A DNA stretch of 64,000 nt from Symbiobacterium sp. (lineage in GTDB: Bacteria > Bacillota > Sulfobacillia > DUSP01 > DYEP01), in contig DYEP01000006.1 in the NCBI GenBank assembly GCA_020725675.1, positions 12,160 to 76,159 of the forward strand, given 5' to 3'. The notes beneath the pieces were generated by a model. The model saw nothing but the letters and a program-made list of their open reading frames with translations, searched no databases and had not been told where the DNA came from. This document shows positions 14,921-56,633 of this stretch, piece by piece; the stretch's first letter is position 1; the number at the start of each line of letters is the position of its first letter. A program made the position numbers and the translations under genes.

Positions 14921-14958
14921 AAAATAGCAGGAACTTTTCCTGCTATTTCCCGTTTTTC
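14921..14958. terminator. bidirectional rho-independent terminator
   Basis: AATAGCAGGAA-ctt-TTCCTGCTATT hairpin flanked by A-run upstream and TCCCGTTTTT downstream. Confidence 0.6.
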
Positions 14959-15086
14959 GGTTCAACTCTGGGAGGTTTGGACGGCTGGGAACTGATGTCC
15001 TTTCCGCAGTAAGGGCAGATCCAAACCCCTCGCTCCGTAGCGGAATAGGAGTCGTTCCGACAGTAAGGGCACTCCTTCCTAAACAC
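14943..15086 (-). CDS. hypothetical 47-aa zinc-ribbon protein (not in ORF track, below size cutoff)
   Basis: Manual translation: (GTG)MFRKECPYCRNDSYSATERGVWICPYCGKDISSQPSKPPRVEPKNGK*; GAGGA SD 5 nt upstream of GTG; stop codon lies in the terminator stem. Confidence 0.35.
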   Translation of the reverse strand: MFRKECPYCRNDSYSATERGVWICPYCGKDISSQPSKPPRVEPKNGK

Positions 15087-15158
15087 AGAAGTCCTCAACG
15101 CCTTCCAAATCTACTTTGAACCGCTTCGCTATGCCTCTCCTCGGCGAGGACACCGCTC

Positions 15159-15509
15159 TTAGCCCTCAACGACCTCGGAGAAGTAAATCACTGTAACTAA
15201 CTCGTCCGGGGATATTTCCCTCATATAAATCTCTTTCAGGAAATCCATTGCATCATCGATGGTCTTCATGTCAGGGTTTTCGCCCTGGAGGTCCTCGGGA
15301 GTGAGCTCTGAAACAGTCTTCACCGTCACCTTGTCCAGGACGGCCGTGCACAGCTTCTTCCTAGGACGAAACCTGTCTCCGTGAGTCACCCAAACAAGGT
15401 CTCCCACCGCATATTTGGAGGTCTTATCTCCGAGCCTTATTGTACAGTGTTTTTCTCCAGCCAGTATGTTGACGTGATAGACGGATGAGTAAAAATTAAG
15501 TGCCCTCAA
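15159..15509 (-). CDS. ASCH domain-containing protein (PUA-like fold)
   Basis: 116 aa; ILAGEKHCTIRLGDK...GDLVWV matches ASCH GxKxxTxR core. Confidence 0.55.
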   Translation of the reverse strand: MRALNFYSSVYHVNILAGEKHCTIRLGDKTSKYAVGDLVWVTHGDRFRPRKKLCTAVLDKVTVKTVSELTPEDLQGENPDMKTIDDAMDFLKEIYMREISPDELVTVIYFSEVVEG

Positions 15510-15604: not shown

Positions 15605-16720
15605 CTACTGAAGAATTGCAAGAAGTATGCCGGCGGCTACCGCGCTGCCTATAACCCCTGCGACGTTGGGCCCCATAGCATGCATCAAGAGAAAGTTCCC
15701 AGGGTTTTCTTTCTGGCCCACGACCTGCGAAACACGGGCCGCCATGGGTACGGCCGAGACTCCGGCAGAACCGATCAACGGGTTTACTTTCCCCCCGCTC
15801 AGAGCATACATGAGTTTCCCCAGCAGCACGCCTGCGGCAGTGCCTATGGAAAATGCAGCGAGCCCGAGCAGGATGATATATATCGTTGACAGAGTAAGAA
15901 ATACCTCTCCCCGGGTGGTAGCGCCCACCGTAAGGCCGAGAAATATGGTGACGATGTTGATGAGCTCATTCTGGGCGGTCTTTGACAACCTGTCCACCAC
16001 ACCCGCTTCCCTGAGCAGGTTCCCAAACATCAGCATACCTATGAGAGCAAGCGCAGAGGGCAGCAGGAGCCCTGTAGCGATCATCACAACGATGGGGAAC
16101 AGTATCCGTTCCTTGCGCGAAACGGGCCTGAGCTGCTCCATTACCACGGAGCGCTCCTTCTTCGTAGTGAGCGCTTTCATGATGGGCGGCTGAATGATGG
16201 GTACCAGTGCCATATATGAATAGGCCGCCACAGCTATCGGGCCCAATAGCTCGGGCGCCAGTTTTGAGGTGAGGAAAATGGCAGTGGGTCCATCAGCTCC
16301 ACCGATGATCCCTATACTCGCAGCCTGTTGCGGCGTAAAACCTAGTGCCAAGGCCCCCAGGAGTGTGGTGAAGATCCCGAACTGGGCTGCAGCGCCGAGC
16401 AAAAAGGTCTTGGGATTGGCGATGAGCGGTCCAAAGTCGGTCATGGCACCGACGCCCAAGAATATCAGGGGTGGGTAAATGCCTAACTTCACTCCGAGGT
16501 ACAAAAAACTCAGCAACCCCCCAGGTTCCATGAGACCTGCTTTTGGAATGTTGGCCAGTAGCACACCAAACCCGATGGGCAGAAGGAGCAGCGGCTCATA
16601 TCTTTTTTCAATAGCCAGGTAGATAAGGACTCCACCCACAACCAGCATAACGGCCCCTCTCCAGTCCAGGCTCAAAAAACCGCTGCTGGTAATGAAATCA
16701 TACAAGTCAGCCCAGAGCAT
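15605..16720 (-). CDS. mmdB: Na+-transporting methylmalonyl-CoA/oxaloacetate decarboxylase beta subunit (membrane Na+ pump subunit)
   Basis: 371 aa polytopic membrane protein with OadB/MmdB/GcdB family hallmarks; last gene of decarboxylase operon. Confidence 0.8.
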
Positions 16721-16735
16721 GATCCAGCCCCCTCC

Positions 16736-17122
16736 CTATTCGATAACAGCAAGAACGTCCCCTGTGTTGACGCTGGCACCTTTCGTTACTTCCAGAGACT
16801 TTACCCGTCCTTCAAACGGGGACTGGATCTCATTTTCCATCTTCATAGCTTCGAGGATGAACATGACTGTCCCTGCTTTCACTTCGGAACCTACAGCCAC
16901 CTTGACATCCACTATGACGCCGGGCATCGGAGCAGTGATCTGGTTTTCTCCCGGAGCAGCTGTTCTTTTCGGCGCCGGGGGGGCAGCTTTTTCTCTTTCT
17001 GCCTGGGCAGGTGCGGCGGCTGCCGGTCTTGTATTTGGCTTGTCCGGTTTTTGGTCTCCGCCGTGTTCCTCGATTACTACCTCAAAAACCTCTCCATTCA
17101 CTGTCACCCTGTATTTCTTCAT
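16736..17122 (-). CDS. mmdC: biotin carboxyl carrier subunit of Na+-pumping decarboxylase (biotinyl domain, AMKM)
   Basis: 128 aa; Ala/Pro-rich linker then ...VMFILEAMKMENEI... biotin attachment motif. Confidence 0.85.
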   Translation of the reverse strand: MKKYRVTVNGEVFEVVIEEHGGDQKPDKPNTRPAAAAPAQAEREKAAPPAPKRTAAPGENQITAPMPGVIVDVKVAVGSEVKAGTVMFILEAMKMENEIQSPFEGRVKSLEVTKGASVNTGDVLAVIE

Positions 17123-17466
17123 CGATTGCTCCCCCTTCGAACAAACATCCTCGCCCTCTCGATCATCTGAGCTTGCCTCCCCGCAGCGCCCCAGGACGGT
17201 GAGGTGCCACCCACTTTCTTGATGGAAAGAACCCTCGGGGCTGACGACAATTCCAGGTGATAGGCGAGTGCTGCAGCGATGGCTGCTACCACCTTTGCAT
17301 CGTTGGCTTTGCCGCTTTCTACGTTCCCCGGTGCAACCGGGGTGCGGGCATTACGTGGTTGCCTGGGACCGCCAAACACGCTCAAGGCTCCCATGAGCAG
17401 GGCCAGCGCTATGAGGGAAGCAAATACCACGCTCATGCCCAACAAAGTCAACCTTATTCCGAGCAT
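17119..17466 (-). CDS. small membrane subunit of Na+-pumping decarboxylase (OadG/MmdD-like)
   Basis: Track ORF is 160 aa, but the conserved part starts at the internal Met, MLGIRLTLLGMSVVFASLIALALLMGAL (OadG-like TM helix); start re-set to 17466. Confidence 0.5.
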   Translation of the reverse strand: MLGIRLTLLGMSVVFASLIALALLMGALSVFGGPRQPRNARTPVAPGNVESGKANDAKVVAAIAAALAYHLELSSAPRVLSIKKVGGTSPSWGAAGRQAQMIERARMFVRRGSNR

Positions 17467-17494
17467 AACACCGTTTTCCAAAGTGACTGCCCTC

Positions 17495-19048
17495 CTACAC
17501 TGGCAGGTTTCCGTGTTTTCGCGCCGCCCGTGCCTCCCGCTTGGAAGACATGGCGGCAAATGCAGCCACAAGCTGCGGTCTCGTCTCTGCGGGATCAACA
17601 ATAACGTCCACGTATCCTCTGCTGGCGGCTACGTACGGATTGGCGAACTGTTCACGGTACGCGGCGATCTTCTCCCTTCTTAACGCCGCCGGGTCGTCCG
17701 CGCGGGCGATCTCGTCCCTGAATATAATATTCGCAGCGCCCTCAGGCCCCATGACGGCCACTTCCGCCTGCGGCCACGCAAGCACCTGGTCAGCACCTAA
17801 AGATCTTGAACACATCGCCAGGTATGCCCCACCATAGGCCTTCCTCAGTATGACCGTGATCTTCGGTACCGTAGCCTCCGAAAACGCATAAAGCAGTTTC
17901 GCACCGTGTCTTATGATCCCACCGTACTCCTGATCCGTGCCAGGCAGATAACCCGGTGTATCCACCAGCGTAAGCAAGGGAATATTGAAGGCGTCACAGA
18001 AACGTACAAACCTTGATGCCTTATCGGAAGCGTTGATATCGAGACAGCCTGCAAGTGTCCGTGGCTGGTTGGCGACCACTCCGACTGGCATCCCTGAGAT
18101 CCTGCAAAAGCCCACGACCAGGTTTTGCGCCCACCCTGCGTGTACTTCAAGGAAGTCACCGGCATCCACCACCAGCCGGATCACGTCCCGCACGTCATAG
18201 GGCTTGTTCGGGTCTGTCGGGACGATGTCCCGGAGGCGCTCCTCCATCCTATCTATGGGGTCCTCGCACTTGACTCTCGGCGGGTCCTCCATGTTATTGG
18301 ACGGGAGGAATGACAAAAGCCTGCGTACTGTCGCCAGGCACTCCTCCTCGTTTTCAGCTTTGAAGTGGGCGACCCCGCTTTTTGTGGCGTGCGTCCGCGC
18401 CCCGCCTAGCTGCTCAGGCGAGACTTCTTCGCCTGTGACGGCTTTGATCACCTGCGGTCCGGTGATAAACATCTGGCTTGTGCCCTCTACCATGAACACG
18501 AAGTCAGTCAGCGCAGGCGAGTAGACTGCTCCCCCGGCCGAGGGACCCATGATAACAGAAATCTGAGGGATGACCCCCGAAGCCATGGTGTTCCTGAAGA
18601 AAATGTTGCCGTATCCGTTCAGTGCGTCTACGCCCTCTTGAATTCGGGCTCCGCCTGAGTCGTTCAACCCGACCAGCGGGGCGCCCGCTTTCATCGCTAA
18701 ATCCATGACCTTGCAGATCTTGGCAGCGTGCATCTCACCCAGGCTACCCCCTATGACCGTAAAATCCTGAGCGAATGCGTAGACTAGCCTGCCGTCTATG
18801 GAGCCGTACCCGGTTATTACCCCCTCGCCTGGCGCCTCCACATCCTCCATGCCAAAAGCTGTGCACCGGTGCTTTACAAACATGTCCAGTTCTATAAAGC
18901 TTCCTTCGTCAAACAGCAGGTTCAATCTTTCCCGCGCGGTGAGCTTGCCTGCTTCGTGCTGTTTTGCCACCCGCTTTTCGCCGCCACCCGCACGCACTCG
19001 CTCGCGGGCTGCTTGCAGTTGCTCGATGAGTTCGGTAATGTCTGGCAA
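17495..19048 (-). CDS. mmdA: methylmalonyl-CoA decarboxylase alpha subunit / carboxyltransferase (propionyl-CoA carboxylase beta-chain family)
   Basis: 517 aa; carboxyl-transferase N and C domains. Confidence 0.85.
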   Translation of the reverse strand: MPDITELIEQLQAARERVRAGGGEKRVAKQHEAGKLTARERLNLLFDEGSFIELDMFVKHRCTAFGMEDVEAPGEGVITGYGSIDGRLVYAFAQDFTVIGGSLGEMHAAKICKVMDLAMKAGAPLVGLNDSGGARIQEGVDALNGYGNIFFRNTMASGVIPQISVIMGPSAGGAVYSPALTDFVFMVEGTSQMFITGPQVIKAVTGEEVSPEQLGGARTHATKSGVAHFKAENEEECLATVRRLLSFLPSNNMEDPPRVKCEDPIDRMEERLRDIVPTDPNKPYDVRDVIRLVVDAGDFLEVHAGWAQNLVVGFCRISGMPVGVVANQPRTLAGCLDINASDKASRFVRFCDAFNIPLLTLVDTPGYLPGTDQEYGGIIRHGAKLLYAFSEATVPKITVILRKAYGGAYLAMCSRSLGADQVLAWPQAEVAVMGPEGAANIIFRDEIARADDPAALRREKIAAYREQFANPYVAASRGYVDVIVDPAETRPQLVAAFAAMSSKREARAARKHGNLPV

Positions 19049-19050
19049 GT

Positions 19051-19455
19051 CTATCCCTCCTTAGGCCTCTGCACCAGCTCCAACAGCACCCCGCCCGTGC
19101 TGCTTGGATGAATGAAGATCACCCTTGTGCCGTGTGCCCCCTTCACCGGCGCATCAGATAGCAGCTGGAGTCCCGATCCTTTCGCTCTGCCCACTGCAGA
19201 GTCGATGTCGTCCACCTCCACTGCGATATGGTGTATGCCTGGGCGTCGGGTTTGGATAAAACGGGCGATGGGACTGTCATCAGCCGTGGGTTCAAGCAGT
19301 TCTATGCGCGTGCTACCAAGCGGCAAGAACGCGACCCTTACCTTCTGGCTCTCCACCACTTCTATGCCTTCCAAAACGAGTCCGAGCGCATCTACCCATA
19401 CGCGACTGGATTCCTCTATACTGTTTACCGCTATTCCGATATGATCAAGTTGCAT
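19051..19455 (-). CDS. mce: methylmalonyl-CoA epimerase (VOC/glyoxalase-fold)
   Basis: 134 aa; MQLDHIGIAV...GIHHIAVEVDDID...ELVQ typical of methylmalonyl-CoA epimerase; context between mutase and decarboxylase. Confidence 0.8.
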   Translation of the reverse strand: MQLDHIGIAVNSIEESSRVWVDALGLVLEGIEVVESQKVRVAFLPLGSTRIELLEPTADDSPIARFIQTRRPGIHHIAVEVDDIDSAVGRAKGSGLQLLSDAPVKGAHGTRVIFIHPSSTGGVLLELVQRPKEG

Positions 19456-19476
19456 GATTGTTCACCTCCTCGTCTG

Positions 19477-21129
19477 TTACTCGGCCCTGTACTCTCCAAA
19501 TACTTTGCGCAGACATCCGCAAATCTCTCCGAGCGTCGCGTAATGCCTCACCGCTTCGAGGATGAAAGGCATCATGTTTTCAGATCCCTGCGCCGCTTCA
19601 TGCAGATTCGAAAGCGCCCTGTCAACTGCTGCCTGATCCCGGCTGGCTTTCAACCGCTTGAGTTTTTCCTTCTGAGCACGCCCGACAAGTGGATCCACGC
19701 GCAGCAATTTCTCCGTGCGGCGCTCCTCCGCTTGGAACTTGTTTACGCCTACAACTATCCGCTCCCCCGACTCGATCTGTTTTTGGTAGTGGTATGCGGA
19801 ATCCTGGATCTCTTTTTGCATGTATCCCTTCTCAATTGCGGCAGCCGCCCCTCCGATCGAATCGATCTTGTCTATGTATTCCTGCGCTGCCGCCTCAATC
19901 CTGTCAGTCAGTGATTCGATATAGTAGCTGCCTCCAAGCGGGTCCACTGTATCGCAGACTCCGCTTTCAAAACCAATGATCTGCTGGGTCCGCAATGCTA
20001 TCCGCACTGACTCTTCCGTGGGCAATGATAATGCTTCGTCTCTTGAGTTGGTGTGGAGGGACTGAGTGCCACCGAGTACTGCAGACAGCGCCTGCAGCGT
20101 GACCCTGACCACGTTGTTGTCCGGCTGCTGCGCGGTGAGGGTGCATCCCGCTGTCTGTGTATGGAATCTGAGCATCTGCGATCTCGGGTTTTTGGCACCG
20201 AATCGTTCTTTCATAATTCGCGCCCATAACCTGCGTGCTGCCCGAAATTTGGCAATCTCCTCGAAGAAGTCGATGTGGGCGTTGAAAAAGAATGATAACC
20301 TGGGAGCAAACACGTCTACATCCAGCCCTTTTTCCACCGCCGCCTTCACATATTCAATGCCGTTGGCAAAGGTGAACGCGACCTCCTGAACCGCGGTGGC
20401 GCCCGCTTCCCTTATGTGGTAACCGCTAATCGAGATGGTGTTCCATTCTGGCATGTGTTTGGAACAATACTCGAATACGTCGGTGATGAGTCTCATCGAT
20501 GGTTTTGGGGGGAATATGTATGTGCCTCTCGCTACATACTCCTTCAGAATATCATTCTGGATGGTCCCGGACAGTTTGGAAGGTTCGATCCCTTGTTTTT
20601 CCGCAACCACGATGTACATCGCAAGGAGGATCGCTGCAGGTGCATTAATAGTCATCGATGTCGATACGCGATCAAGAGGAATCTGATCAAACAGCACTTC
20701 CATGTCCGCGAGCGAATCTATGGCCACACCGACCTTTCCTACCTCGCCCTCTGCCAAATGGTGATCCGAGTCGTACCCGATCTGGGTGGGGAGGTCGAAT
20801 GCCACGGATAGGCCAGTTTGTCCCTGTGAAAGCAGATACCGAAACCGCGCGTTCGTCTCTTCCGCAGTACCAAACCCTGCATACTGCCTCATAGTCCAGA
20901 GTCTGCCCCGGTACATATTTGGCTGAACTCCCCGAGTGAACGGGTACTCGCCTGGAAATCCCAGGTTCGTCATGTAATCCGTCCCCTCGAGGTCAACTGG
21001 CGTATAAAGCGTCTTCACCTCCAGACCCGAGGGAGTGCAAAACTCCTGCTTCCTTTCGGGAAAACGGCTCCGGAGTTTTTCCAGCGTACTTGTTTCCCAT
21101 ATCTTTTGGGCTTCTTTCACATCTTGCAT
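19477..21129 (-). CDS. mcmA: methylmalonyl-CoA mutase, catalytic (TIM-barrel) large subunit without fused B12-binding domain
   Basis: Protein ~550 aa from the internal Met MQDVKEAQ... (track N-extension of 15 aa likely spurious); MCM substrate-binding barrel conservation; ends before the B12-binding domain, so a separate cobalamin-binding subunit is required. Confidence 0.85.
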
Positions 21130-21288
21130 GCTATCCCCCCCGTGTTGCGTTCGTACTTCGAATATTGTTCGCATGACATATACAATTCCTTCTTTGCAAA
21201 AGCTTTCCCTTCAGTTTGTCAGCGGGCACCTTTAAGTGGTACGGGGGCCCGAAACGGGCCCCCTGACAGAGGTGTTCGGGTTCCGATA

Positions 21289-22542
21289 TTAGCCCAGCCA
21301 GCCCCTGACCCGCATGGCCTGTGCAACCCTGTCAACTGCGACAAGGTATGCCGCGTCTCGTGGTTTCACCCTCTTGCTCTTGTACATATTGTATACGTTC
21401 TCAAAGGCCTTCACCATCATGAACTCAAGCCTTGAATTCACTTCCTCTTCCGACCAATAGAACCCGTAAAGGTTTTGACACCATTCGAAATAGGATACGG
21501 TTACGCCGCCTGCGTTAGCCAAAATGTCGGGGATGACGAATACTCCATTCTTCGCCAGAATCTCATCGGCTTCAGGGGTAGTAGGACCGTTGGCCGCCTC
21601 TCCCACGATCCGCGCCCTGACTCTGCCGGCGTTGGCTGCTGTAATCTGGTTCTCCAGCGCAGCGGGGATCAGCACCTCGCACTCAAGTTCGAGCAGCTCC
21701 TCATTGGTTATGGGCTTTGTGCCGGGATAGCCCACAACGCTGCCCGTCTCGTCTTTGAAGGCCAGTACCTTCAGAGGATCAAGCCCGGCCGGGTTCAGGA
21801 TCCCACCCTTTGAATCACTGACTGCGATTACGGCGGCGCCCATTTCATGCATGAGCCTTGCGGCAATGCTGCCTGCATTGCCGTATCCTTGTACGGCCAC
21901 TCTTGCGCCTTTTATCTCGATGCCCAGCTTCTTTGCGGCTTCCCTGATGGTGATCACACATCCGCGCGCAGTGGCCTCGTTACGCCCGAGTGAACCGCCG
22001 ATGATGATAGGCTTCCCCGTAATGACCCCGGGTTGGAAACTCTCCTTGATCTTGGAGAATTCATCCACCATCCACGCCATGATCTGCGGGTTTGTGTATA
22101 CATCGGGCGCCGGAATGTCCTTCTCGGGTCCGACGATCTGGGAAATAGCCTGGAAGAATCCGCGGCTTATCCTCTCGAGCTCGCCCTTTGAGAGCTCCTT
22201 CGGGTTGCAAACCACACCGCCCTTGCCTCCGCCGTAAGGAAGACCGAGCACGGCGCACTTGAACGTCATCCACATGGAGAGCGCCCTGACTTCGTCCGCG
22301 TGAACGTCCGGGTGGAACCTGATGCCGCCTTTTGTGGGACCTACAGCATCATTGTGCTGGGAGCGGAAACCTTTGAACACGCGTACCGATCCGTCATCCA
22401 TGCGCACCGGGAACGTGACCTCAAGGAATCTCATAGGCTCCTTCAATACCTCGTATACCGCAGGCTCAAGCTCCAGCATGTCGACGGCCCGTTTGATCTG
22501 ACCCTGTACAATCTTGAAAGGATTCATCTGCTCGGTAGACAT
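21289..22542 (-). CDS. gdhA: Glu/Leu/Phe/Val-family glutamate dehydrogenase
   Basis: 417 aa; ...GPTKGGIRFHP... and ...KCAVLGLPYGGGKGG... catalytic-domain motifs; NAD(P)-binding GYGNAGS. Confidence 0.9.
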   Translation of the reverse strand: MSTEQMNPFKIVQGQIKRAVDMLELEPAVYEVLKEPMRFLEVTFPVRMDDGSVRVFKGFRSQHNDAVGPTKGGIRFHPDVHADEVRALSMWMTFKCAVLGLPYGGGKGGVVCNPKELSKGELERISRGFFQAISQIVGPEKDIPAPDVYTNPQIMAWMVDEFSKIKESFQPGVITGKPIIIGGSLGRNEATARGCVITIREAAKKLGIEIKGARVAVQGYGNAGSIAARLMHEMGAAVIAVSDSKGGILNPAGLDPLKVLAFKDETGSVVGYPGTKPITNEELLELECEVLIPAALENQITAANAGRVRARIVGEAANGPTTPEADEILAKNGVFVIPDILANAGGVTVSYFEWCQNLYGFYWSEEEVNSRLEFMMVKAFENVYNMYKSKRVKPRDAAYLVAVDRVAQAMRVRGWLG

Positions 22543-22625
22543 TTTTTTGGGTTGCTCCCCCTTTTCTGATCATTCTCTGTTTTGCGGCATAACTGGTAGC
22601 GAACTCTGGCGGGTCGTGTTGTGGA

Positions 22626-23192
22626 TTACCTACCTCCTTCTCTTTGGCAGGGCACAGCATGTTTCGCCAGGGCATAACCCGCTTCAAGCGCCTTCTTGTT
22701 CAGCTGCTCCGTGCCTGGCGGCACCCTGGCAAGCACGGCCTTCTCGCAGGCGCCTGGTGACACGACGCCCGTCAGTTCGACCAAAAGGCCAAGTGCCACA
22801 ATATTGGCCACGATCGCCTTTCCCGAACACGCTATGGCGGTTTCGGTAATGGGCGACGCCACTACCTTCGCGTCAATATCAGGCAACCGCTTGACAAGCC
22901 CGGCATCGACGATCAGCACTCCGCCCCGAGCTATATCTTTCGCATACTTATCGCAAGCTACCTGAGTCATCACCAAGAGCACGTCAGGCACGGTAACCTT
23001 GGGGTAATCGATCTCGTCGTCGGAAATGATCACCTCCGATTTGCTCGCGCCCCCTCTTGACTCAGGGCCATATGACTGGGTCTGCACGGCGTTCTTGCCC
23101 TCATGTATTGCGGCCGCTTCCGCCAGTATGATCCCAGCCAATATCAAGCCCTGACCGCCCTCTCCCGCCAGCCTGATCTGCCAGTAGCTCAT
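22626..23192 (-). CDS. korC: 2-oxoglutarate (2-oxoacid):ferredoxin oxidoreductase gamma subunit
   Basis: 188 aa; MSYWQIRLAGEGGQGLILAG... POR/KOR gamma-subunit N-terminus. Confidence 0.85.
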   Translation of the reverse strand: MSYWQIRLAGEGGQGLILAGIILAEAAAIHEGKNAVQTQSYGPESRGGASKSEVIISDDEIDYPKVTVPDVLLVMTQVACDKYAKDIARGGVLIVDAGLVKRLPDIDAKVVASPITETAIACSGKAIVANIVALGLLVELTGVVSPGACEKAVLARVPPGTEQLNKKALEAGYALAKHAVPCQREGGR

Positions 23193-24016
23193 GGTCTCAC
23201 GCCTCCTTTTGCGCGCTCCACCAGTTCCCTGTAGGCCTTCGTATACTCCTTGAGCTCGGTGGCCCTGTAGAGTTCACCGACGATGATCTTGCCTTCAACT
23301 TGTTCAGGAGGCAGCTTTGACAGCGCCTTCTTGTTCACGGAATTGTCCCGGAACCAGTTCAGCATGTCTACTGCTGTGCCGCGCTTGTTCCTGCGTCCAA
23401 AGTACGTAGGGCACTGGGACAGCGCTTCCACGAAAGAGAAGCCGTCCACGCGGAGCGCTTCGGTAATCAAGTTTGTGAGCATGGTCACATGGTAGGTGGT
23501 CGCCCGGGCGACATAGGCTCCCCCCGCAGCCTGCACCAGCCTGGACAGATCAAAAGGTATATCGATGCTCCCGAAAGGAGACGTGGTCGCCAGCGAACCC
23601 GTGGGCGTTGAAGGTGAATACTGCCCGCTCGTCATTCCGTAAACATAGTTATTAAAGCAGATCGTGGTGATTCCGATGTTTCGTCTAGCGGCGTGTATAA
23701 GGTGGTTACCTCCGATGGCCGCAGCATCGCCATCGCCGGTAATGACAATGACCTTAAGCTCGGGTCTTGCCAGCTTGATGCCGGTCGCGAACGCCAGCGC
23801 TCTGCCGTGTGTAGTGTGCAGTGTGTCAAAGTTCATGTAGCCGGTAGCCCGCGAAGAGCAGCCTATACCCGACACGATGACCGTTTTATCCTGATCCAAT
23901 CCGGCCTTTTGAATCGCTCTTAAGAGGCAGCCCAGCACCGTACCGTGCCCGCATCCCGCGCACCAGATGTGCGGGAGCGCCCGGTCTCTCAAATAACCTC
24001 GAATGTGCTCGCTCAT
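23189..24016 (-). CDS. korB: 2-oxoglutarate:ferredoxin oxidoreductase beta subunit (TPP-binding)
   Basis: 275 aa; WCAGCGHG and GDGD TPP-binding motifs; 4-nt overlaps with neighbours. Confidence 0.85.
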   Translation of the reverse strand: MSEHIRGYLRDRALPHIWCAGCGHGTVLGCLLRAIQKAGLDQDKTVIVSGIGCSSRATGYMNFDTLHTTHGRALAFATGIKLARPELKVIVITGDGDAAAIGGNHLIHAARRNIGITTICFNNYVYGMTSGQYSPSTPTGSLATTSPFGSIDIPFDLSRLVQAAGGAYVARATTYHVTMLTNLITEALRVDGFSFVEALSQCPTYFGRRNKRGTAVDMLNWFRDNSVNKKALSKLPPEQVEGKIIVGELYRATELKEYTKAYRELVERAKGGVRP

Positions 24017-25146
24017 GATAGCACCTCCAGGACCCTTCGCTCGATCTCGTCAGGGGTTATCATCTCCCCATCCACACGGGAATAGGATAACACCTGGCAC
24101 TGGCAAAGCAGCGCTCTTTCGACTTCAAGTACGAGCTGTCCAAGGTTCATCTCGGGCACCAGCACTGTGTGCGCGCCGGCAGCGATCTCCCGCAGCGCTT
24201 CAGCAGGAAAAGGCCAGATCACCGACGTCTTGGCAAACCCCACACGGTACCCACGCCCCCTCAGGTTTCTAGATGCGCGGAGCGCCGAGCGGGCCGTGGC
24301 GCCGTAGGAAAAGATGATCAGTTCTGCGTCTTCGCAGTTCTCCACCTGAGTCCTCACCAGCTCAGCCCTCCGTCTCTCCACTTTCTGGCAGATCCTGCGG
24401 AGGAGATGTTCAGCTTTTTCCCCTTTCCCGATGGGCATACCGGATTCGCTGTGGAAGAGTCCTGTCACGTGATAACGGTAGCCGTCTCCGAACGCGGCCA
24501 TCGGCGGGATGTCGCTGCCGGGCAACGGCGCGTACGGGAGGTACTCGCCCGGAGGAGTCGTGGGAGAAGGCCGAACCTCGATGCTGACCTCTTCGGGGAT
24601 GATGATCTTCTCTCTCATGTGCGCTACGATCTCGTCAAGCAAGAGGATCACAGGTACCCTGAGCCGTTCTGAGATGTTGAAGGCCCAGATGGTCAGGTCA
24701 TATGTCTCTCGCACAGAAGAAGGTGACAGCACAACAATAGGGTGGTCGCCGTGCGTCCCCCATCTCGCCTGCATCACATCTCCCTGTGCGGGAGATGTGG
24801 GAAGGCCCGTGGAGGGCCCCATCCTCTGGACGTTCACCACCACGCACGGTACCTCCGCCAATGCGGCGTAGCCGATGTTCTCCTGCTTTAAGGAGAAACC
24901 CGGACCGCTGGTCGCGGTCATGGCCTTTGCCCCCGTCAGCGACGCCCCTATGACTGCTGCCATGGACGCGATCTCATCCTCCATCTGGATGAACGTCCCT
25001 CCCACACGGGGCAGCCGGTCGGCCAGGCTTTCCGCGATCTCAGTAGACGGAGTAATGGGGTAGCCTGCGAAAAAGGAGAGCCCGGCCCTTATCGCTGCTT
25101 CTGCACAGGCCTCGTTCCCCTGCATAAACCTTACTTCGCCGCTCAC
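24013..25146 (-). CDS. korA: 2-oxoglutarate:ferredoxin oxidoreductase alpha subunit
   Basis: 377 aa; MQGNEACAEAAIRAG...GYPITPSTEI POR/KOR alpha N-terminus. Confidence 0.85.
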   Translation of the reverse strand: MSGEVRFMQGNEACAEAAIRAGLSFFAGYPITPSTEIAESLADRLPRVGGTFIQMEDEIASMAAVIGASLTGAKAMTATSGPGFSLKQENIGYAALAEVPCVVVNVQRMGPSTGLPTSPAQGDVMQARWGTHGDHPIVVLSPSSVRETYDLTIWAFNISERLRVPVILLLDEIVAHMREKIIIPEEVSIEVRPSPTTPPGEYLPYAPLPGSDIPPMAAFGDGYRYHVTGLFHSESGMPIGKGEKAEHLLRRICQKVERRRAELVRTQVENCEDAELIIFSYGATARSALRASRNLRGRGYRVGFAKTSVIWPFPAEALREIAAGAHTVLVPEMNLGQLVLEVERALLCQCQVLSYSRVDGEMITPDEIERRVLEVLS

Positions 25147-25367
25147 TCTCCGTCACCCCCGTCAACTTCGATAGCAAAGTCAGGACACATGAATTCGCAT
25201 AACCGGCATGCAGAACAATCTTCCGGCCGCGCCGGGAGCGGGCGGTGCTCGTCGTCTGGGTCAAGCACCTTCTTTGGGCAAAACGCGATGCAGATCCCGC
25301 AAGCCTTGCACCATGCCCTGTTTACGCTGATCTTCGGGATCTTCTTGACTTTCCTGGGCATGGCCAC
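25143..25367 (-). CDS. korD: 2-oxoacid:ferredoxin oxidoreductase delta subunit (2x[4Fe-4S] ferredoxin)
   Basis: 74 aa with two CxxCxxCxxxCP clusters (CKACGICIAFCP, CSACRLCEFMCP). Confidence 0.8.
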   Translation of the reverse strand: MAMPRKVKKIPKISVNRAWCKACGICIAFCPKKVLDPDDEHRPLPARPEDCSACRLCEFMCPDFAIEVDGGDGE

Positions 25368-25403
25368 TACCCATCATCTCCTTCATGAATGTGTAGCCCG
25401 ACG

Positions 25404-26378
25404 TTACCCGGGTCTTCTTTCAATGAGTGCCGTCTTCAAGAGGTTTATGGAGCCCGCGTCAGGCCTGTAGATGAACTCAATGATCTCTGCCCCCGGGGAT
25501 GCGCACGCCTCCACTTCCTTTTTCCGCCCGGGGCTCGTGATGACTACGTGGAGAGGCCTTACAAACTTCTCCAGTTCCTGCCTGTCCTTGGTTGTGGTAT
25601 ACTCGAAGGCTGTGCTAATACCGCTTTGACTTAACGACTTCATGACCCTTTCTGCGAAATCCTTCGACGAACACACCAGGCCCACGCGTTTCCCGTCACC
25701 GATCCGGGCGATACGCACCATAGTCTCGAGCAACGGATCAAGCGCAATCCCCAAAACATCTACGCCGGTTCCCGACGCCATTTCTCTCACCTCGTCCAGG
25801 TGAAAGAACGTGGTGACGATCACGTCCATGCTCCCGAGCACCGCCCGGGCGTTCACCATATCACGCTTCAATTCAGGGAACAGCAGCGGTACAATCTTTA
25901 CACCCGACCCGAGCTCCAGCTGTTTTGCGAAGTAATCCAGTTGCTCTTTGTTACACTCCACAAAGGCCGCTTTTACGTGCCCTAAGAGCTCTCTTCTTTC
26001 TTCCACCCGCTGGTGTACCATCGCCAGGAAGTCGTCAAGACCGAGCCCAACAAAAAGAGCCTCGTCGATACAAGACTCGATGGCTCTTTTTAAGCGGTCA
26101 GCACCGTCTTCGTTTTTGGATATGCCGGAGAGTATGAAAGTGCCTCTCCCCTGGCGGGAAGTGACAAAACCCTGCGCTTCCAGCTCCCTGTAAGCCATTG
26201 ACACGGTATTCCTGGATATGCCCAGCGCGTTGGCCAGGTCCCGCTCAGTGGGTATGCGCATGCCTTCGCGCCAGTAGCCCGTGCGTATCAGCTGCTCTAT
26301 CTGTTTCTTAAGCTGCAGGTAAATGGGCAGCTCGCCGTCCCTGTCGACTCTCAAAGGCAGTTCCTTCACGCCCCGCAC
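25404..26378 (-). CDS. GntR-family transcriptional regulator with ~230-aa uncharacterised C-terminal domain
   Basis: 324 aa; N-terminal winged HTH PTERDLANALGISRNTVSMAYRELEAQGFV; first gene, 36 nt upstream of korD on same strand. Confidence 0.7.
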   Translation of the reverse strand: MRGVKELPLRVDRDGELPIYLQLKKQIEQLIRTGYWREGMRIPTERDLANALGISRNTVSMAYRELEAQGFVTSRQGRGTFILSGISKNEDGADRLKRAIESCIDEALFVGLGLDDFLAMVHQRVEERRELLGHVKAAFVECNKEQLDYFAKQLELGSGVKIVPLLFPELKRDMVNARAVLGSMDVIVTTFFHLDEVREMASGTGVDVLGIALDPLLETMVRIARIGDGKRVGLVCSSKDFAERVMKSLSQSGISTAFEYTTTKDRQELEKFVRPLHVVITSPGRKKEVEACASPGAEIIEFIYRPDAGSINLLKTALIERRPG

Positions 26379-26550
26379 CTCTTTAATGGACTGGTGGTAT
26401 TTGGCCTATTGGATCTATTCATTAGTCCTTATTGGCCCACCGCTCACACATATTCTACGCCCGGAGCGTTTTTCCTGCCAGCTGTTCCGCTCTACTGTGA
26501 AATTTTTCTCGAACCAACATTTGCAAGTGATACCCGCTTCACAGCACAGA

Positions 26551-26583
26551 AAACAGAAAAAAGACCCCCAAAGATAGGGGGAT
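26551..26583 (-). terminator. rho-independent terminator downstream of amidase gene
   Basis: CCCCC-aaagata-GGGGG hairpin followed on the minus strand by TTTTTTCTGTTTT. Confidence 0.6.
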
Positions 26584-32413: not shown

Positions 32414-33214
32414 CTAAAGTCCTTTCAATGCTAATACTTCTTTTGCCGGAGTTCTGTCACCCTTGCAGCTGATCATGCGGGGCGCATCCAGAAATACTAT
32501 TTTGAATCCATGGCTCTGATACAATTGTATAATACGATCCGTCGCCTGGTTGGATAGGACTACAGGCCCCGAATGCCGGGCCAGCCAAGCGGCTAGACGG
32601 GTCTGGTCCTCCCAGCCGAATCCATCCTTGGAATACTGGGTAAATTCCACATCATACGGAGGATCGGCGTATACAAAGTCATTCTCGTTGAGGACAAGAC
32701 TCTCAAAGTCACTGCAGGAGAACTCCCACTGGCTAAGTACCTGCCGATAGGGTTGGTGGTCACGCACGTAGTTTATAGCACGGTATCTGCCAAATGGAAC
32801 GTTAAACTCCCCTTTTTTGTTGAAACGGCACAGTCCGTTATAGCCCGTTCGGTTAAGATAATAAAACAGTTCGGCTGATTCCTTGGTTTTTTCTTTTCCT
32901 TCCTTGACAAGCCGGTTGAAACGTTCGCGGTGAGCATAGTAAAGGGTCTTATCATTCTCCATGGGGATTGTAATGTACAGGCCCCTCTGCACCCACCGGA
33001 AAAAGTTGATCACGTGTATATTAATATCGTTCAACAGCGCCCTTTTCGGCATTAGACCCAAGGTTACCGATAGGCCGCCACATAGCGGCTCGACTAATCT
33101 CAGGCTCGAATAGGGCTCCCAAAGAGGCTTCAGGTGGGGGACCAACCACCGTTTTCCCCCAGCCCACTTCAGCGGTGGCCCCAGACCGCGGACATAAATG
33201 CCGTTTGCCTTCAT
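32414..33214 (-). CDS. dam: DNA adenine methyltransferase, Dam/D12 class (N6-adenine MTase)
   Basis: LKWAGGKRWL (SAM-binding motif I) near N-terminus and DPPY catalytic motif (VYADPPYD); start moved to MKANGIYV... (track N-extension of 10 aa). No adjacent restriction endonuclease. Confidence 0.8.
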   Translation of the reverse strand: MKANGIYVRGLGPPLKWAGGKRWLVPHLKPLWEPYSSLRLVEPLCGGLSVTLGLMPKRALLNDINIHVINFFRWVQRGLYITIPMENDKTLYYAHRERFNRLVKEGKEKTKESAELFYYLNRTGYNGLCRFNKKGEFNVPFGRYRAINYVRDHQPYRQVLSQWEFSCSDFESLVLNENDFVYADPPYDVEFTQYSKDGFGWEDQTRLAAWLARHSGPVVLSNQATDRIIQLYQSHGFKIVFLDAPRMISCKGDRTPAKEVLALKGL

Positions 33215-33323
33215 GTCATGACTCCTAACGCCCGGTTTCCGCAAGAACGGACAAAGCCGGGATCTTTCACATCAGCATTACGCCGAGTGCACTCCTGCTC
33301 CAGCGCGTACGGCCTGTTCACTC

Positions 33324-45006: not shown

Positions 45007-46401
45007 TCACTGAAAACGGGAAAACGCCCTGTACAGGCGATCGATGAGTTCGTCCGCCTGCTCCTTTGTAATGATAAGCGGAGGTCCCACAAGAAAATGG
45101 TCTCCCAGGACGCCGTCGACGGCTCCTCCCCCGGGATATACCACAACTCCTTCCTCCAGCGCGATGCGGGTAAATCGCTCGGCGGCCTGTCCTCCCCCCT
45201 GAGGGAACGGCATTTTCGTATCCCGATCCTGCACAAGCTCGATCCCTATCATTAACCCTTTGCCGCGCACATCCCCCACGTTCGGGTGGGAGTGCAAAAC
45301 CGTCAACAGCCCATCAAGCAGGTACTGCCCGATATCAGCAGAATTCTTGGCGAGGTCGTGCTCGGTGTAGTAATCCAGCACGGCGCAACCAACCCGGCAG
45401 GCGAGAGGATTTGCCCCGTACGTATGCCCGTGTACAAACTTACCGCTGCCGCGCAGGAACGCCTCCCAGATACGCTCCCTCGCAATAACCGCGCCTATTG
45501 GAAAATACCCCGCTCCCATCCCTTTTGCCACGGTCATGAGATCCGGCACCACTCCCCAGTGCTCAATTGCAAAGTGCCGGCCTGTACGGCCGAATCCGGT
45601 CATCACTTCATCTACGATCAGCAGTATGTCGTATCTGTCACAGATCTCCCTGATAATACGCCAGTACTCAGGGGGAGGAACGATAGCCCCTGTTGCCGCC
45701 CCTCCTATGGGTTCAGCAATGAATGCCGCTATGTAATCGGCACTTTCTGTCTTTATCACAGTGTCCAGCTCGTATGCGCATTTGATGCCGCACTCCGGGT
45801 AGGTCCGGTTATATGGGCACCGGTAGCAGTACGGCGGGTTTATATGAGGGAAATCTACCAGCATTGGCGCATACTTCCGTCTCCTCCCGACCGTGCCGCT
45901 CATCGACAGCGCACCGAGGGTGTTACCGTGAAATGCGTGCCACCTGCCTATGACCTTGTGCTTTTGTGACACGCCGTCCCGTTCCAGGAAGTACTGTCTT
46001 GCCATTTTCATCGCAGTTTCCGTTGCTTCTGACCCTCCCGATACCAGGTAGACCCGATTTAGATCTCCCGGTGCAAGCGTCGCTACCTTCCTGCAGAGCT
46101 CCAAAAGCCACGGTGTGGTGAACCTGGACTGGTGCGCAAAACCGAGCGTCCTGGCCTGCTCGGCCAAGGCCTCCGCGATACCCGGCAGCCCCTGCCCGAT
46201 GTTCGTCACGAGCGCCCCTGAGCAACCATCGATGTATCTGTTTCCGTCCTTGTCCCAAAGGTATATGCCACTACCCTTCACGAGCACAGGGTGTGAGCGT
46301 GAAACGTCCCGATAAAACACCCACCTATCGTCCACCGCATGTTCGCCCCCCGTCACTTCTTCCTTGACCCCGGTTTCCAGTACACCTCGTGAGTCTCCCA
46401 T
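45007..46401 (-). CDS. class III (omega-type) PLP-dependent aminotransferase
   Basis: 464 aa; aminotransferase class-III fold blocks (…LVSGGSEATETAMKMAR…, DEVMTGFGRTG, TVAKGMG Lys). Confidence 0.85.
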   Translation of the reverse strand: MGDSRGVLETGVKEEVTGGEHAVDDRWVFYRDVSRSHPVLVKGSGIYLWDKDGNRYIDGCSGALVTNIGQGLPGIAEALAEQARTLGFAHQSRFTTPWLLELCRKVATLAPGDLNRVYLVSGGSEATETAMKMARQYFLERDGVSQKHKVIGRWHAFHGNTLGALSMSGTVGRRRKYAPMLVDFPHINPPYCYRCPYNRTYPECGIKCAYELDTVIKTESADYIAAFIAEPIGGAATGAIVPPPEYWRIIREICDRYDILLIVDEVMTGFGRTGRHFAIEHWGVVPDLMTVAKGMGAGYFPIGAVIARERIWEAFLRGSGKFVHGHTYGANPLACRVGCAVLDYYTEHDLAKNSADIGQYLLDGLLTVLHSHPNVGDVRGKGLMIGIELVQDRDTKMPFPQGGGQAAERFTRIALEEGVVVYPGGGAVDGVLGDHFLVGPPLIITKEQADELIDRLYRAFSRFQ

Positions 46402-47225
46402 AGTCTCTCAAGGCGGTCCAGCGCTTCAATGGTCGCGCCGCGCCTTAGTGCGCCCACACCAGCCACCAGCACGTTTACCAGGCTGAGTGGGCCGACGAAC
46501 GAATCGGCGAAATGCCGGAAGCCGCTCTTTGCCAAAAGCACCGTATCCGCATACTCCGTCAGCGGTGAAAGCACGCTGTCAGTGATGGCAATGGTATTTG
46601 CGCCGTTTTCTCTCGCAAGTCGTATGAGCTCCACCGTGACCATAGAGTACCTGGGGAAGGAGAGCGCAACTACCGTATCGCCCACCCCAATATTCGCCAT
46701 CTGGTCATACATGTCTGCAGTGCCGTATCCGAGTACCGATACGTCAGGCAGGATCCACCTCAGGTAAAACCCCATAAAGAAAGCGAGGGAGAACGTGCTT
46801 CTGTAACCGATAATGCGTACGCGCTTTGATGTACTCAGCATCTTCACAGCCTGCTCCACTGCGCTGTAGTCCACTTCGGTCATGGTGCGCGCCACCAGTT
46901 CCATGTCATCTTGAAATACCCTGCTGATCCAGTTTTCCTCGTCAAGCCCTTCAGTAGAGCCTACGAGTCGGTCCACCGTAGTCAGTTTGCTCTTTAAGAC
47001 CTCCTGAAGCGCCTCTTGGAACTCCGGGTAGCCCTCATATCCCAGCGCAGAGGCGAACCGCACGACCGTCGATTCACTCACTCCCACTGCGCGCCCTACC
47101 TTGGCCGCTGTCATAAATACGGCCTTGTCATAATGTTCGATAAAGAACTCGGCAATAGCCCTTTGGGAGCTGGACATCTCGTTGATCCGCTGCTTGATCC
47201 TATCTATGACCTCTACTGGTTCCAA
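46353..47225 (-). CDS. MurR/RpiR-family transcriptional regulator (HTH_6 + SIS domain)
   Basis: 290 aa; N-terminal RpiR HTH (SQRAIAEFFIEHYDKAVFMTAAKVGRAVGVSESTVVRFA) and SIS domain. Confidence 0.8.
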   Translation of the reverse strand: MEPVEVIDRIKQRINEMSSSQRAIAEFFIEHYDKAVFMTAAKVGRAVGVSESTVVRFASALGYEGYPEFQEALQEVLKSKLTTVDRLVGSTEGLDEENWISRVFQDDMELVARTMTEVDYSAVEQAVKMLSTSKRVRIIGYRSTFSLAFFMGFYLRWILPDVSVLGYGTADMYDQMANIGVGDTVVALSFPRYSMVTVELIRLARENGANTIAITDSVLSPLTEYADTVLLAKSGFRHFADSFVGPLSLVNVLVAGVGALRRGATIEALDRLERLWETHEVYWKPGSRKK

Positions 47226-47237
47226 CTGAAGACCCCC

Positions 47238-49190: not shown

Positions 49191-49208
49191 TGGCGATCAC
49201 CTCCTCCA

Positions 49209-49673
49209 TCACGGCCAGCGCCTTATCCTGACCAGGATACGGCTGCCGGCCGGCGCTACATCCGAGAGCAGAAACTCCCTGTCCGGCATGATGAAACGCT
49301 GGCTCACAGTATACGCTACCCTGAAGGCGATCTCGTCCATCTCCTCCGTGTAACCTGATATGATTACCCGGTTCCCATCGAGCGAGAACTCCCGTGCTGC
49401 CATGGACTCAAGACCCGCTCCATACCACTCGTAGGACTCGGATACGAGGCGAATCCGGCAGTGCTCAGTCACTTCCCATACCTGGCATACCGGGGTTCTG
49501 TCCGAAGAGTGGATGTACTCGGTGATGAACCTTTCCCCCGCCCATGTGGGTGCAGCATATACTACTTCTCCATCGTCCGCACGTACCACCTGCAGCATAC
49601 ACGAAGGGCGCCGGACGATGAGCACGGCGCCCACCAAGAGAATTACAATCGCGGCCCTTCCCGCGAGCTTCAT
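49209..49673 (-). CDS. DUF1850-domain protein associated with TAXI-TRAP systems
   Basis: Conserved part begins MKLAGRAAIVILLV (TM/signal); the ~65-aa N-extension in the track is Pro/Ser/Thr-rich and probably spurious; position between TAXI receptor and permease. Confidence 0.5.
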   Translation of the reverse strand: MKLAGRAAIVILLVGAVLIVRRPSCMLQVVRADDGEVVYAAPTWAGERFITEYIHSSDRTPVCQVWEVTEHCRIRLVSESYEWYGAGLESMAAREFSLDGNRVIISGYTEEMDEIAFRVAYTVSQRFIMPDREFLLSDVAPAGSRILVRIRRWP

Positions 49674-49674
49674 G

Positions 49675-50673: not shown

Positions 50674-50703
50674 AATACGTTCCCCTCCCTGGTTAACTTA
50701 TTA

Positions 50704-51891: not shown

Positions 51892-51892
51892 T

Positions 51893-56508: not shown

Positions 56509-56542
56509 TTGCTACCCTCGCTCCCTGACTTACTTTAGTGTG

Positions 56543-56571
56543 ATTATAGCATAGGTTACTTGACCTCTCAA
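56543..56571 (-). promoter_or_regulatory. sigma-A-type promoter for tyrS (TTGAGA-17-TATAAT)
   Basis: Minus strand reads TTGAGAggtcaagtaacctatgcTATAAT, ~35 nt upstream of the tyrS ATG. Confidence 0.5.
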
Positions 56572-56633
56572 ACGAAAGAACGCCCAGGGAACTCTGCCCG
56601 AGGTCAGCCCGTCTTAGCACATAGGCAGCGCTT

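Follow-up and report, generated by a model that had tools for sequence, protein, structure and literature searches.

The DNA analysed here, 64,000 nucleotides of contig DYEP01000006.1 (hereafter, the window) from an uncultured Bacillota metagenome-assembled genome, carries what is probably a regulator-led catabolic operon leading to propionyl-CoA from glutamate, or else from 2-oxoglutarate supplied by any amino acid of the glutamate family. The open reading frame (ORF) listing and translations place twelve consecutive co-directional genes at 15605-26378 on the minus strand: a GntR-type regulator, korDABC for a 2-oxoacid:ferredoxin oxidoreductase (KOR), gdh for glutamate dehydrogenase (GDH), mcmA (mcm) for methylmalonyl-CoA mutase, the methylmalonyl-CoA epimerase gene (epi) and mmdA-D-C-B for a Na+-pumping decarboxylase.

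In the proposed route, GDH would deaminate glutamate to 2-oxoglutarate, and KorDABC, with ferredoxin, would convert this into succinyl-CoA and CO2. As KOR yields succinyl-CoA directly, a succinate activation step is not needed. The mutase, together with a B12-binding subunit encoded elsewhere in the genome, would then form (R)-methylmalonyl-CoA, the epimerase would convert it to the (S)-form, and the membrane complex MmdADCB would decarboxylate the latter to propionyl-CoA and CO2 with export of Na+. NAD(P)H, reduced ferredoxin and the thioester would be dealt with by genes beyond the window, probably through production of H2 or formate and formation of ATP from propionyl-CoA.

Gene cluster and assignment of its enzymes

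A preliminary description of this DNA had placed the twelve genes head-to-tail on one strand with 4-nt overlaps or short gaps, as is borne out by the ORF coordinates, and all the gene identities it named hold in hidden Markov model (HMM) scans against Pfam and NCBIfam and in PDB matches. The genes are, in order of transcription (positions are those of the window; aa, amino acids):

25404..26369 (longest ORF from 26378), minus strand: regulator, with a GntR winged helix-turn-helix (HTH), two YtrA-like helices and a LacI/PBP-like alpha/beta domain of about 190 aa (PF27163 YmtS_Ross)
25143..25367, minus strand: korD, 2x[4Fe-4S] delta subunit of 2-oxoacid:ferredoxin oxidoreductase (best family OGOR_delta, 55.8 bits, cut-off 125)
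24013..25146, minus strand: korA, alpha subunit (POR_N and PFOR_II; NF006412 556 bits, above the cut-off of 411)
23189..24016, minus strand: korB, thiamine diphosphate-binding beta subunit (TPP_enzyme_C; NF007207 303 bits, cut-off 364)
22626..23192, minus strand: korC, gamma subunit (PF01558; NF006323 221 bits, cut-off 235)
21289..22542, minus strand: gdh, hexameric-type glutamate dehydrogenase (both ELFV domains, PDB matches)
19477..21174 (alternative start ATG 21129), minus strand: mcmA, methylmalonyl-CoA mutase large (substrate-binding) subunit, 565 aa (PF01642, TIGR00641, residues)
19051..19455, minus strand: methylmalonyl-CoA epimerase (TIGR03081 151.8 bits, above the cut-off of 114.95)
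17495..19048, minus strand: mmdA, methylmalonyl-/propionyl-CoA-type carboxyltransferase, 517 aa, TTG start (PF01039, TIGR01117, PDB matches)
17119..17466, minus strand: mmdD, OAD_gamma-family small membrane anchor, 115 aa (PF04277, E=3.4e-12)
16736..17122, minus strand: mmdC, biotin carrier, 128 aa, with an Ala/Pro-rich linker and EAMKM (Lys94) (PF00364 Biotin_lipoyl)
15605..16720, minus strand: mmdB, Na+-translocating carboxybiotin decarboxylase beta subunit, 371 aa (TIGR01109 526 bits, above the cut-off of 191)

The cluster ends are ORF boundaries, namely the mmdB stop at 15605 and the start of the longest regulator ORF at 26378. The regulator start is more likely the GTG at 26369 (321 aa), 9 nt past the ribosome-binding site (RBS) AAAGAGG, because this RBS abuts the earlier GTG and a protein 99% identical to the regulator (P0001) is 321 aa long. 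The start of mmdD was set at 17466, downstream of a TTG that opens an ORF of 160 aa. From the coordinates, 4-nt overlaps occur at four junctions (korD/korA, korA/korB, korB/korC and mmdD/mmdC), so that the korD-A-B-C subunits form one translationally coupled unit with three of them. The remaining gaps are of 36 nt (regulator-korD), 83 nt (korC-gdh), 114 nt (gdh-mcm), 21 nt (mcm-epi), 2 nt (epi-mmdA), 28 nt (mmdA-mmdD) and 15 nt (mmdC-mmdB).

MmdA matches the crystallised propionyl-/methylmalonyl-CoA carboxyltransferases with 640-746 bits (Thermotoga 'PCC beta' 1vrg, 746; Sulfolobus 'Mmd alpha' 1x0u, 702; 12S transcarboxylase, 673), versus only 119 and 91 bits for the glutaconyl-CoA decarboxylase alpha subunit GcdA in the same PDB search. 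It scores 705 bits on PF01039 and contains no HMGL/TIM-barrel domain of the OadA type. The carboxyltransferase is thus of the methylmalonyl-/propionyl-CoA type, as predicted earlier; an identity as glutaconyl-CoA decarboxylase is ruled out by the GcdA scores, and one as oxaloacetate decarboxylase by its being unrelated to the TIM-barrel OadA. The match to TIGR01117 is full-length (residues 6-517 on model positions 1-512) and reaches 913.2 bits, under the cut-off of 998.8. The MmdA sequence by itself does not set it apart from PccB or 12S, and the name was chosen because of its partners: the kept residues of MmdB, the EAMKM of MmdC, the OAD_gamma anchor and the lack of a biotin carboxylase domain. 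No such domain was found among the window ORFs scanned with Pfam, which makes the biotin enzyme a decarboxylase-type assembly with membrane subunits of the beta and gamma families. In an alignment to 6iva, MmdB keeps the equivalents of OadB D203, Y229, N373, G377, S382 and R389, six residues of the Na+/H+ pathway that are functionally important according to OadB mutagenesis. MmdADCB is predicted to export Na+ in dependence on methylmalonyl-CoA. At the related locus L084 (11160-12795), mmdC is followed by a GH18 gene and mmdB is not adjacent; the pump subunit of L084 may be encoded elsewhere, or the complex may work differently there.

The mutase scores 807 bits on PF01642 and 860 bits on TIGR00641, and is devoid of a B12-binding domain. 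Its Tyr98, Ala125 and Arg216 align with the Tyr/Ala/Arg of the human methylmalonyl-CoA mutase, where the 2-hydroxyisobutyryl-CoA mutase HcmA has Ile/Asp/Gln; His253 is also among the residues checked as kept. These substrate residues agree with the earlier assignment to the methylmalonyl-CoA type and not to an isobutyryl-CoA paralogue. They rule out an isobutyryl- or 2-hydroxyisobutyryl-CoA mutase, in spite of the fact that HcmA is the top PDB match by score (601 bits, versus 557 for the human enzyme). As the specificity residues are of the methylmalonyl-CoA mutase type, the higher HcmA score probably reflects the common split-subunit architecture. No NCBIfam match to an ethylmalonyl-CoA mutase family surfaced in the HMM scan, which included no separate test aimed at that family.

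In relatives, a B12-binding subunit of about 130 aa with a DGHDRG motif, often accompanied by MeaB, comes after the mutase gene. Both are found within the cluster at L084, L086/L087, L016 and L164. Nevertheless, 17 of the 22 related metagenome loci that contain mcm have no B12 subunit in the cluster, so that an off-cluster subunit is the norm. A separate contig scan based on the mutase recovered 80 relatives of at most 71% identity, none of them with the regulator; it says little on the operon, and in it the B12 and MeaB genes also normally come after mcm.

KorA finds its best PDB matches in 1yd7, 8ys5 (2-oxoglutarate synthase alpha) and 6n2n (OGOR), with PFOR and oxalate oxidoreductase far lower. 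On the 2-oxoglutarate-specific family NF007206 it reaches 380 bits against a cut-off of 579, and it passes only the generic 2-oxoacid family NF006412. The best named families of KorB and KorD are 2-oxoglutarate-specific, at scores below the cut-offs (303/364 and 56/125 bits, respectively). GDH scores 289 bits on PF00208, 196 bits on PF02812 and 610 bits on NF040817 (cut-off 750). Its best PDB matches, 7mfm, 3k8z and 3k92 (532-557 bits), two of them labelled 'NAD-specific glutamate dehydrogenase', are presumably the catabolic GudB/RocG enzymes of B. subtilis.

Distribution of the arrangement and its regulator

In order to gain insight into how widely the arrangement occurs, metagenomes were scanned with an alignment of the regulator, yielding 80 further loci (41-55% identity) from freshwater and marine sediments, bioreactors and fermentations. 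Wherever at least 1.5 kb of room was available, korA follows the regulator in 48 of 54 loci, which bears out the earlier suggestion that the regulator is dedicated to this cluster. Where 9.5 kb or more was available (29 loci), korA occurs in 24, mcm in 22, epi in 20, gdh in 17, mmdA in 10, the B12 subunit in 5 and MeaB in 2. The kept core is kor-mcm-epi beside the regulator, with gdh and mmd as frequent additions. Such a core fits a KOR that makes succinyl-CoA, the mutase substrate, and it is from this kept linkage, in which the KOR product is the substrate of mcm, that we infer a preference of KOR for 2-oxoglutarate.

Context look-ups place the order regulator-korDABC-gdh-mcm in three or more distinct chromosomal neighbourhoods (L083, L084/L085 and L086/L087). 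L086/L087 represent the complete version, B12 subunit and MeaB included, and L090/L091 a short one, regulator-korDABC-mcm-epi, in the same yajC...mraZ slot as in the window. The same operon is present on the JGI metagenome contig 3300002733, which is 96.7% identical to the window at the nucleotide level. Chance does not account for the arrangement, as many independent contigs show the gene order with proteins that share only 41-79% identity with those of the window. The mutase-based contig scan also brought up a Halanaerobiales metagenome-assembled genome (L016) with a cluster of korABC, mcm, the genes for the B12 subunit and MeaB, epi, and gdh in two copies, in a different order, which lends independent support to a functional link among these enzymes. 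Having these genes together had been called unusual; this applies relative to cultured model organisms, but in metagenomes the order regulator-kor-(gdh)-mcm-epi-(mmd) is common. One metagenome locus (L156) has the order regulator-gdh-mcm-B12-meaB-epi-mmdA-C-B, with no kor between regulator and gdh.

The HTH of the regulator matches PF00392 with 66.7 bits (E=1.4e-18), and PF27163 (YmtS_Ross) is precomputed for the 99% identical protein P0001. Homologues number 636 at E <= 1e-10, and PF27163 is present in all 120 among the matches listed. An AlphaFold model built from 57 sequences (pLDDT 90.6) shows the N-terminal GntR winged helix followed by the two YtrA-like helices. The LacI/PBP-like (YmtS_Ross) domain has no sequence relative in the PDB. 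AraR-type regulators also combine a GntR HTH with an effector domain, of the LacI/GalR type; the domain in the window regulator differs in being only about 10% identical to theirs, in its shorter length (about 190 aa), in having its own Pfam family (PF27163 YmtS_Ross) and in being separated from the HTH by the two YtrA-like helices.

Upstream of the regulator lies a candidate operator:

26385..26437, minus strand: candidate operator, four [GT]CCA[AT][AT] half-sites (GGCCAAT, ATCCAAT, GGCCAAA, GTCCATT), between the -10 box and the RBS

Nowhere else in the 64 kb do three or more half-sites fall within 60 nt. Upstream of the regulator in eight lineages, the most shared k-mers are TCCAAT/GCCAAT (7 of 8), the motif being the top k-mer of an unbiased search; GATCCAA occurs in 5 of the 8, a count reached by none of 300 shuffles, and GATCCAAT in 4, a count reached by 2 of 300. 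In the 74 independent metagenome regulator loci with sufficient upstream sequence, that sequence contains 138 half-sites, against 15.8 +/- 4.2 for control segments drawn at random from these loci, and GATCCAA is found at 23 of the 74 (control mean, 1.6). Because the loci are related by descent these counts overstate their independence, though the signal is large nonetheless. The GATCCAAT-type sites that separate the -10 box from the regulator's own RBS are probably bound by this protein. Transcription of the entire unit would be blocked as long as no small-molecule effector occupies the LacI/PBP-like domain; repressor action with response to an effector is the simplest reading.

Two further loci, L088 (10001-10975) and L089 (1116-2090), carry a regulator orthologue (50% identical) right after yajC, followed by a short-chain dehydrogenase, 5-FTHF cyclo-ligase and DUF401, with the kor-mcm cluster absent. 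Either the cluster was lost there or the regulator has further targets.

Transcription unit and direction of flux

Features that bear on the limits and continuity of the transcript are, from 5' to 3':

26564..26583, minus strand: terminator-like hairpin and T-run ending the upstream cwlD-like amidase gene, 5' limit of the unit (stem CCCCC/GGGGG, tail CTTTTTTCT; folding free energy (dG) -10 kcal/mol, z -1.4, weak)
26452..26481, minus strand: promoter-like site CTGGCA-18 nt-TAGAAT (consensus match 9/12)
21243..21263, minus strand: GC-rich, perfect 9-bp hairpin with no U-run (GGGGGCCCG-UUU-CGGGCCCCC), 25 nt past the gdh stop (dG -21.9 kcal/mol, z -3.6)
15159..15509, minus strand: ASCH-domain gene, probably a co-transcribed passenger (outside the cluster in L083 and L084)
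14943..15098, minus strand: putatively coding 51-aa CPYC...CPYC zinc-ribbon ORF, ahead of the terminator
14922..14948, minus strand: first strong intrinsic terminator 3' of the cluster, probable 3' end of the unit (12-bp stem and UUUUCUUUU; dG -22.2 kcal/mol, z -4.4)

The promoter assignment is weak, as promoter-like matches in the region do not exceed those in shuffled sequence. A consensus scan detected no terminator-like site on the coding strand within the cluster, so that the separate transcripts considered in the preliminary description gain no support from an internal intrinsic terminator. A single transcript is predicted for the whole cluster; the probable extent of the unit is from about 26481 to about 14920 (about 11.5 kb), slightly longer than 15605-26378. 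Because the ASCH gene and the zinc-ribbon ORF lie between mmdB and the first strong terminator, the operon transcript may include them as well; in the other lineages checked, neither belongs to the cluster. Rfam yielded no family at gathering score anywhere in the 64 kb, and hence no cobalamin or other riboswitch before the cluster. The hairpin after gdh could stabilise the mRNA, serve as a processing site or attenuate transcription in part, and could give the kor-gdh and mcm-mmd halves different mRNA levels.

Several points weigh against a glutamate-to-propionyl-CoA operon. First, KorB, KorC, KorD, GDH and MmdA fall short of the cut-offs of the curated equivalog or subfamily models, so that their substrate specificities can be assigned only at family level. 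Second, many related loci lack gdh and mmd, so that the conserved function of the core need not begin at glutamate. Third, the hairpin after gdh and the gaps of 83 and 114 nt could hide internal promoters or processing sites. Fourth, of the glutamate-to-propionate route claimed earlier, the enzymes from glutamate to propionyl-CoA are encoded, but the 64-kb window contains neither a B12-binding subunit nor MeaB (tblastn with two B12 subunits and one MeaB from related loci; best E=0.6), so that the mutase step relies on genes elsewhere; moreover, no enzyme from propionyl-CoA to propionate and no glutamate carrier is evident among the Pfam-scanned ORFs of the window, nor is a hydrogenase or Rnf among those of the cluster. 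Finally, the reactions of KOR, GDH, mutase and epimerase are all reversible, and a KOR-epimerase-mmd cluster of Cloacimonadota has been read in the opposite, propionate-consuming direction (PMC13082233).

The third of these points bears on whether the genes are co-located rather than co-transcribed. Regulator-korDABC-gdh and mcm-epi-mmdADCB could be two differently regulated units with a looser physiological link, as in a succinate-to-propionate fermentation beside a separate glutamate/2-oxoglutarate node. The stable hairpin (dG -21.9 kcal/mol) lies directly 3' of gdh, at the largest gap of the cluster (114 nt), which precedes mcm, and module content differs by genome, with kor-mcm-epi lacking gdh or mmd, kor-gdh alone, and gdh-mcm-mmd lacking kor. 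The mutase gene has also diverged unlike its neighbours (92.9% nucleotide identity versus at least 99%). However, the hairpin lacks a U-run, and neither the korC-gdh nor the gdh-mcm gap yielded a promoter-like site on the coding strand; the kor-gdh-mcm order is held in many lineages with short gaps only, and in the short variants L090 and L091 mcm comes straight after korC. Division into two units is therefore considered unlikely.

The divergence of mcm was observed between the window (19477-21174) and the JGI strain (L081, 15192-16895). It is the most diverged gene of the cluster; epi and mmdA are about 96.5% identical in nucleotide sequence, and kor, mmdD, mmdC and mmdB at least 99%. This mosaic pattern suggests recombination at the mutase locus.

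The catabolic direction, predicted as is the 2-oxoglutarate specificity of KOR, is favoured by the presence of a Na+-pumping decarboxylase in place of a transcarboxylase or an ATP-dependent carboxylase, by the repressor-like regulator heading the operon and by 7mfm/3k8z/3k92 as nearest PDB relatives of GDH. Conversion of glutamate to propionate + 2 CO2 + NH4+ + 2 H2 has a free energy change near zero, about -6 kJ/mol under standard conditions, and the organism would thus depend on removal of H2 or formate. Flux could conceivably run in reverse, with Mmd carboxylating propionyl-CoA at the expense of the Na+ gradient, succinyl-CoA being formed and reductively carboxylated by KOR to 2-oxoglutarate, and GDH aminating the latter, either for propionate assimilation or as a variant of propionate oxidation. 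All soluble steps would permit this, a gene for the final step to propionate is missing from the cluster, and the Cloacimonadota cluster was interpreted in this way. On the other hand, the cluster also lacks a gene for propionate activation (CoA-transferase, ligase or kinase), and the only CoA-transferase that turned up in the window belongs to a different cluster, at a distance of 25 kb. Carboxylation against the free energy of decarboxylation, followed by ferredoxin-dependent reductive carboxylation, would be costly, and catabolic operons typically start with a regulator of the kind seen here, repressor-like and effector-binding. The closest PDB relatives of GDH are presumably the catabolic GudB/RocG, and the syntrophic propionate oxidisers known so far rely on a transcarboxylase in place of a Na+ pump. 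Reverse flux thus appears quite improbable.

It is very improbable that the mutase branch is non-functional through loss of the B12 subunit and MeaB, leaving KOR and GDH only as a 2-oxoglutarate/succinyl-CoA node: the two genes are missing from the window and stand between mcm and epi in fuller operon versions (L086/L087, L164, L140), but all ORFs are intact, mutase and MmdB both retain their catalytic residues, 17 of 22 mcm-bearing related loci likewise lack an in-cluster B12 subunit, and the second strain, 96.7% identical in nucleotide sequence, keeps the B12-less arrangement with a 95% identical mcm protein.

Relation to known systems and neighbouring genes

Glutamate fermentation to propionate via succinyl-CoA and methylmalonyl-CoA, dependent on H2 removal, is reportedly established from the physiological work of Stams, Plugge and Nanninga. 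The window encodes exactly the enzyme sequence needed for the route of Thermanaerovibrio acidaminovorans, Gelria glutamica and Anaeromusa acidaminophila from glutamate to propionyl-CoA. These organisms differ in being cultured and characterised by labelling and enzyme assays, whereas the window comes from an uncultured one. The mmd genes resemble those of Propionigenium modestum and Veillonella parvula (gene orders mmdADCB and mmdADECB, respectively) in subunit set and A-D-C-B order, in the propionyl-/methylmalonyl-CoA type of MmdA, in the OAD_gamma anchor and AMKM carrier and in the Na+-site residues of the beta pump. They differ in forming the tail of a longer unit led by the regulator, korDABC and gdh, in the lack of an epsilon subunit and in the position of MmdA below the TIGR01117 cut-off (913 vs 998.8); moreover, succinyl-CoA would here derive from oxidation of 2-oxoglutarate and not from succinate via a CoA-transferase. 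The OorDABC/KorDABC 2-oxoglutarate:ferredoxin oxidoreductases share with korDABC the delta-alpha-beta-gamma order with 4-nt overlaps, 2-oxoglutarate-specific best families for beta and delta, and, as closest named PDB relatives of KorA, 8ys5 and the Magnetococcus OGOR 6n2n. The difference is that here only KorA clears a curated cut-off, and in a generic 2-oxoacid family.

The mmc cluster of Pelotomaculum-type syntrophic propionate oxidisers also co-locates genes for mutase, epimerase and carboxyltransferase. Pelotomaculum uses a transcarboxylase along with succinate dehydrogenase, fumarase and malate dehydrogenase; genes for these are not present here, whereas gdh and the Na+ pump are. In the Cloacimonadota cluster, a 2-oxoglutarate:ferredoxin oxidoreductase adjoins the epimerase (PMC13082233). 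Both of these clusters differ from that of the window in being read in the propionate-oxidising direction.

Every enzyme family of the cluster is already known, as are the pathway, from the physiology of cultured glutamate degraders, and the mmdADCB order. A search of the literature on the pathway and on 'YmtS' returned no description of this operon or regulator. Specifically, no paper was found on a single regulator-led unit that joins gdh and korDABC to the genes for mutase, epimerase and Mmd, on how widely such a unit is distributed among uncultured Bacillota, or on a YmtS_Ross-type GntR regulator with a conserved upstream motif. It may be, with chances somewhat short of even, that the regulator, its GATCCAAT-type operator and korDABC-mcm-epi make up a widespread regulon of uncultured Bacillota in sediments, digesters and fermentations, leading from 2-oxoglutarate directly to propionyl-CoA. 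Its full version, with gdh and mmdADCB, would then be a one-operon, Na+-conserving pathway from glutamate to propionate, and the lineages that carry it would be as yet unrecognised syntrophic glutamate degraders and propionate producers of those habitats.

Propionate build-up is a classic bottleneck of anaerobic digestion, and protein-rich feeds bring much glutamate. If the proposal is true, the operon would provide a genetic marker for mostly uncultured organisms that form propionate from amino acids, as well as a testable regulator/operator pair, and it would help to settle the reading direction of similar KOR-mutase-epimerase-mmd clusters in other phyla. The enzymology is textbook; the gain lies in ecology, annotation and regulation, not in a new mechanism.

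According to Pfam scans, the window flanks of the cluster are housekeeping, with ruvCAB-queH-dam-sigI/rsgI-queA-tgt-yajC-amidase upstream and ASCH-pheA-mraZ-rsmH-ftsL-PBP-mur genes downstream. Among named genera (Pelotomaculum, Desulfofundulus, Symbiobacterium and others), no MutS2 protein exceeds 48% identity to the one encoded in the window. No T-box was detected before tyrS (55316-56620) in the Rfam scan. A gene for a Dam-like DNA adenine methylase (MethyltransfD12; 32414-33244, minus strand) lies between queH and sigI/rsgI, in the 2-kb bin of lowest GC (0.514), and is not found at the corresponding position in L082, L085, L088 and L090. A second putative catabolic cluster (45007-53086, minus strand) encodes a class-III aminotransferase, an RpiR-type regulator, a fused TRAP permease, a TAXI receptor, a thiolase and a family-III CoA-transferase, the last being the distant CoA-transferase mentioned above.

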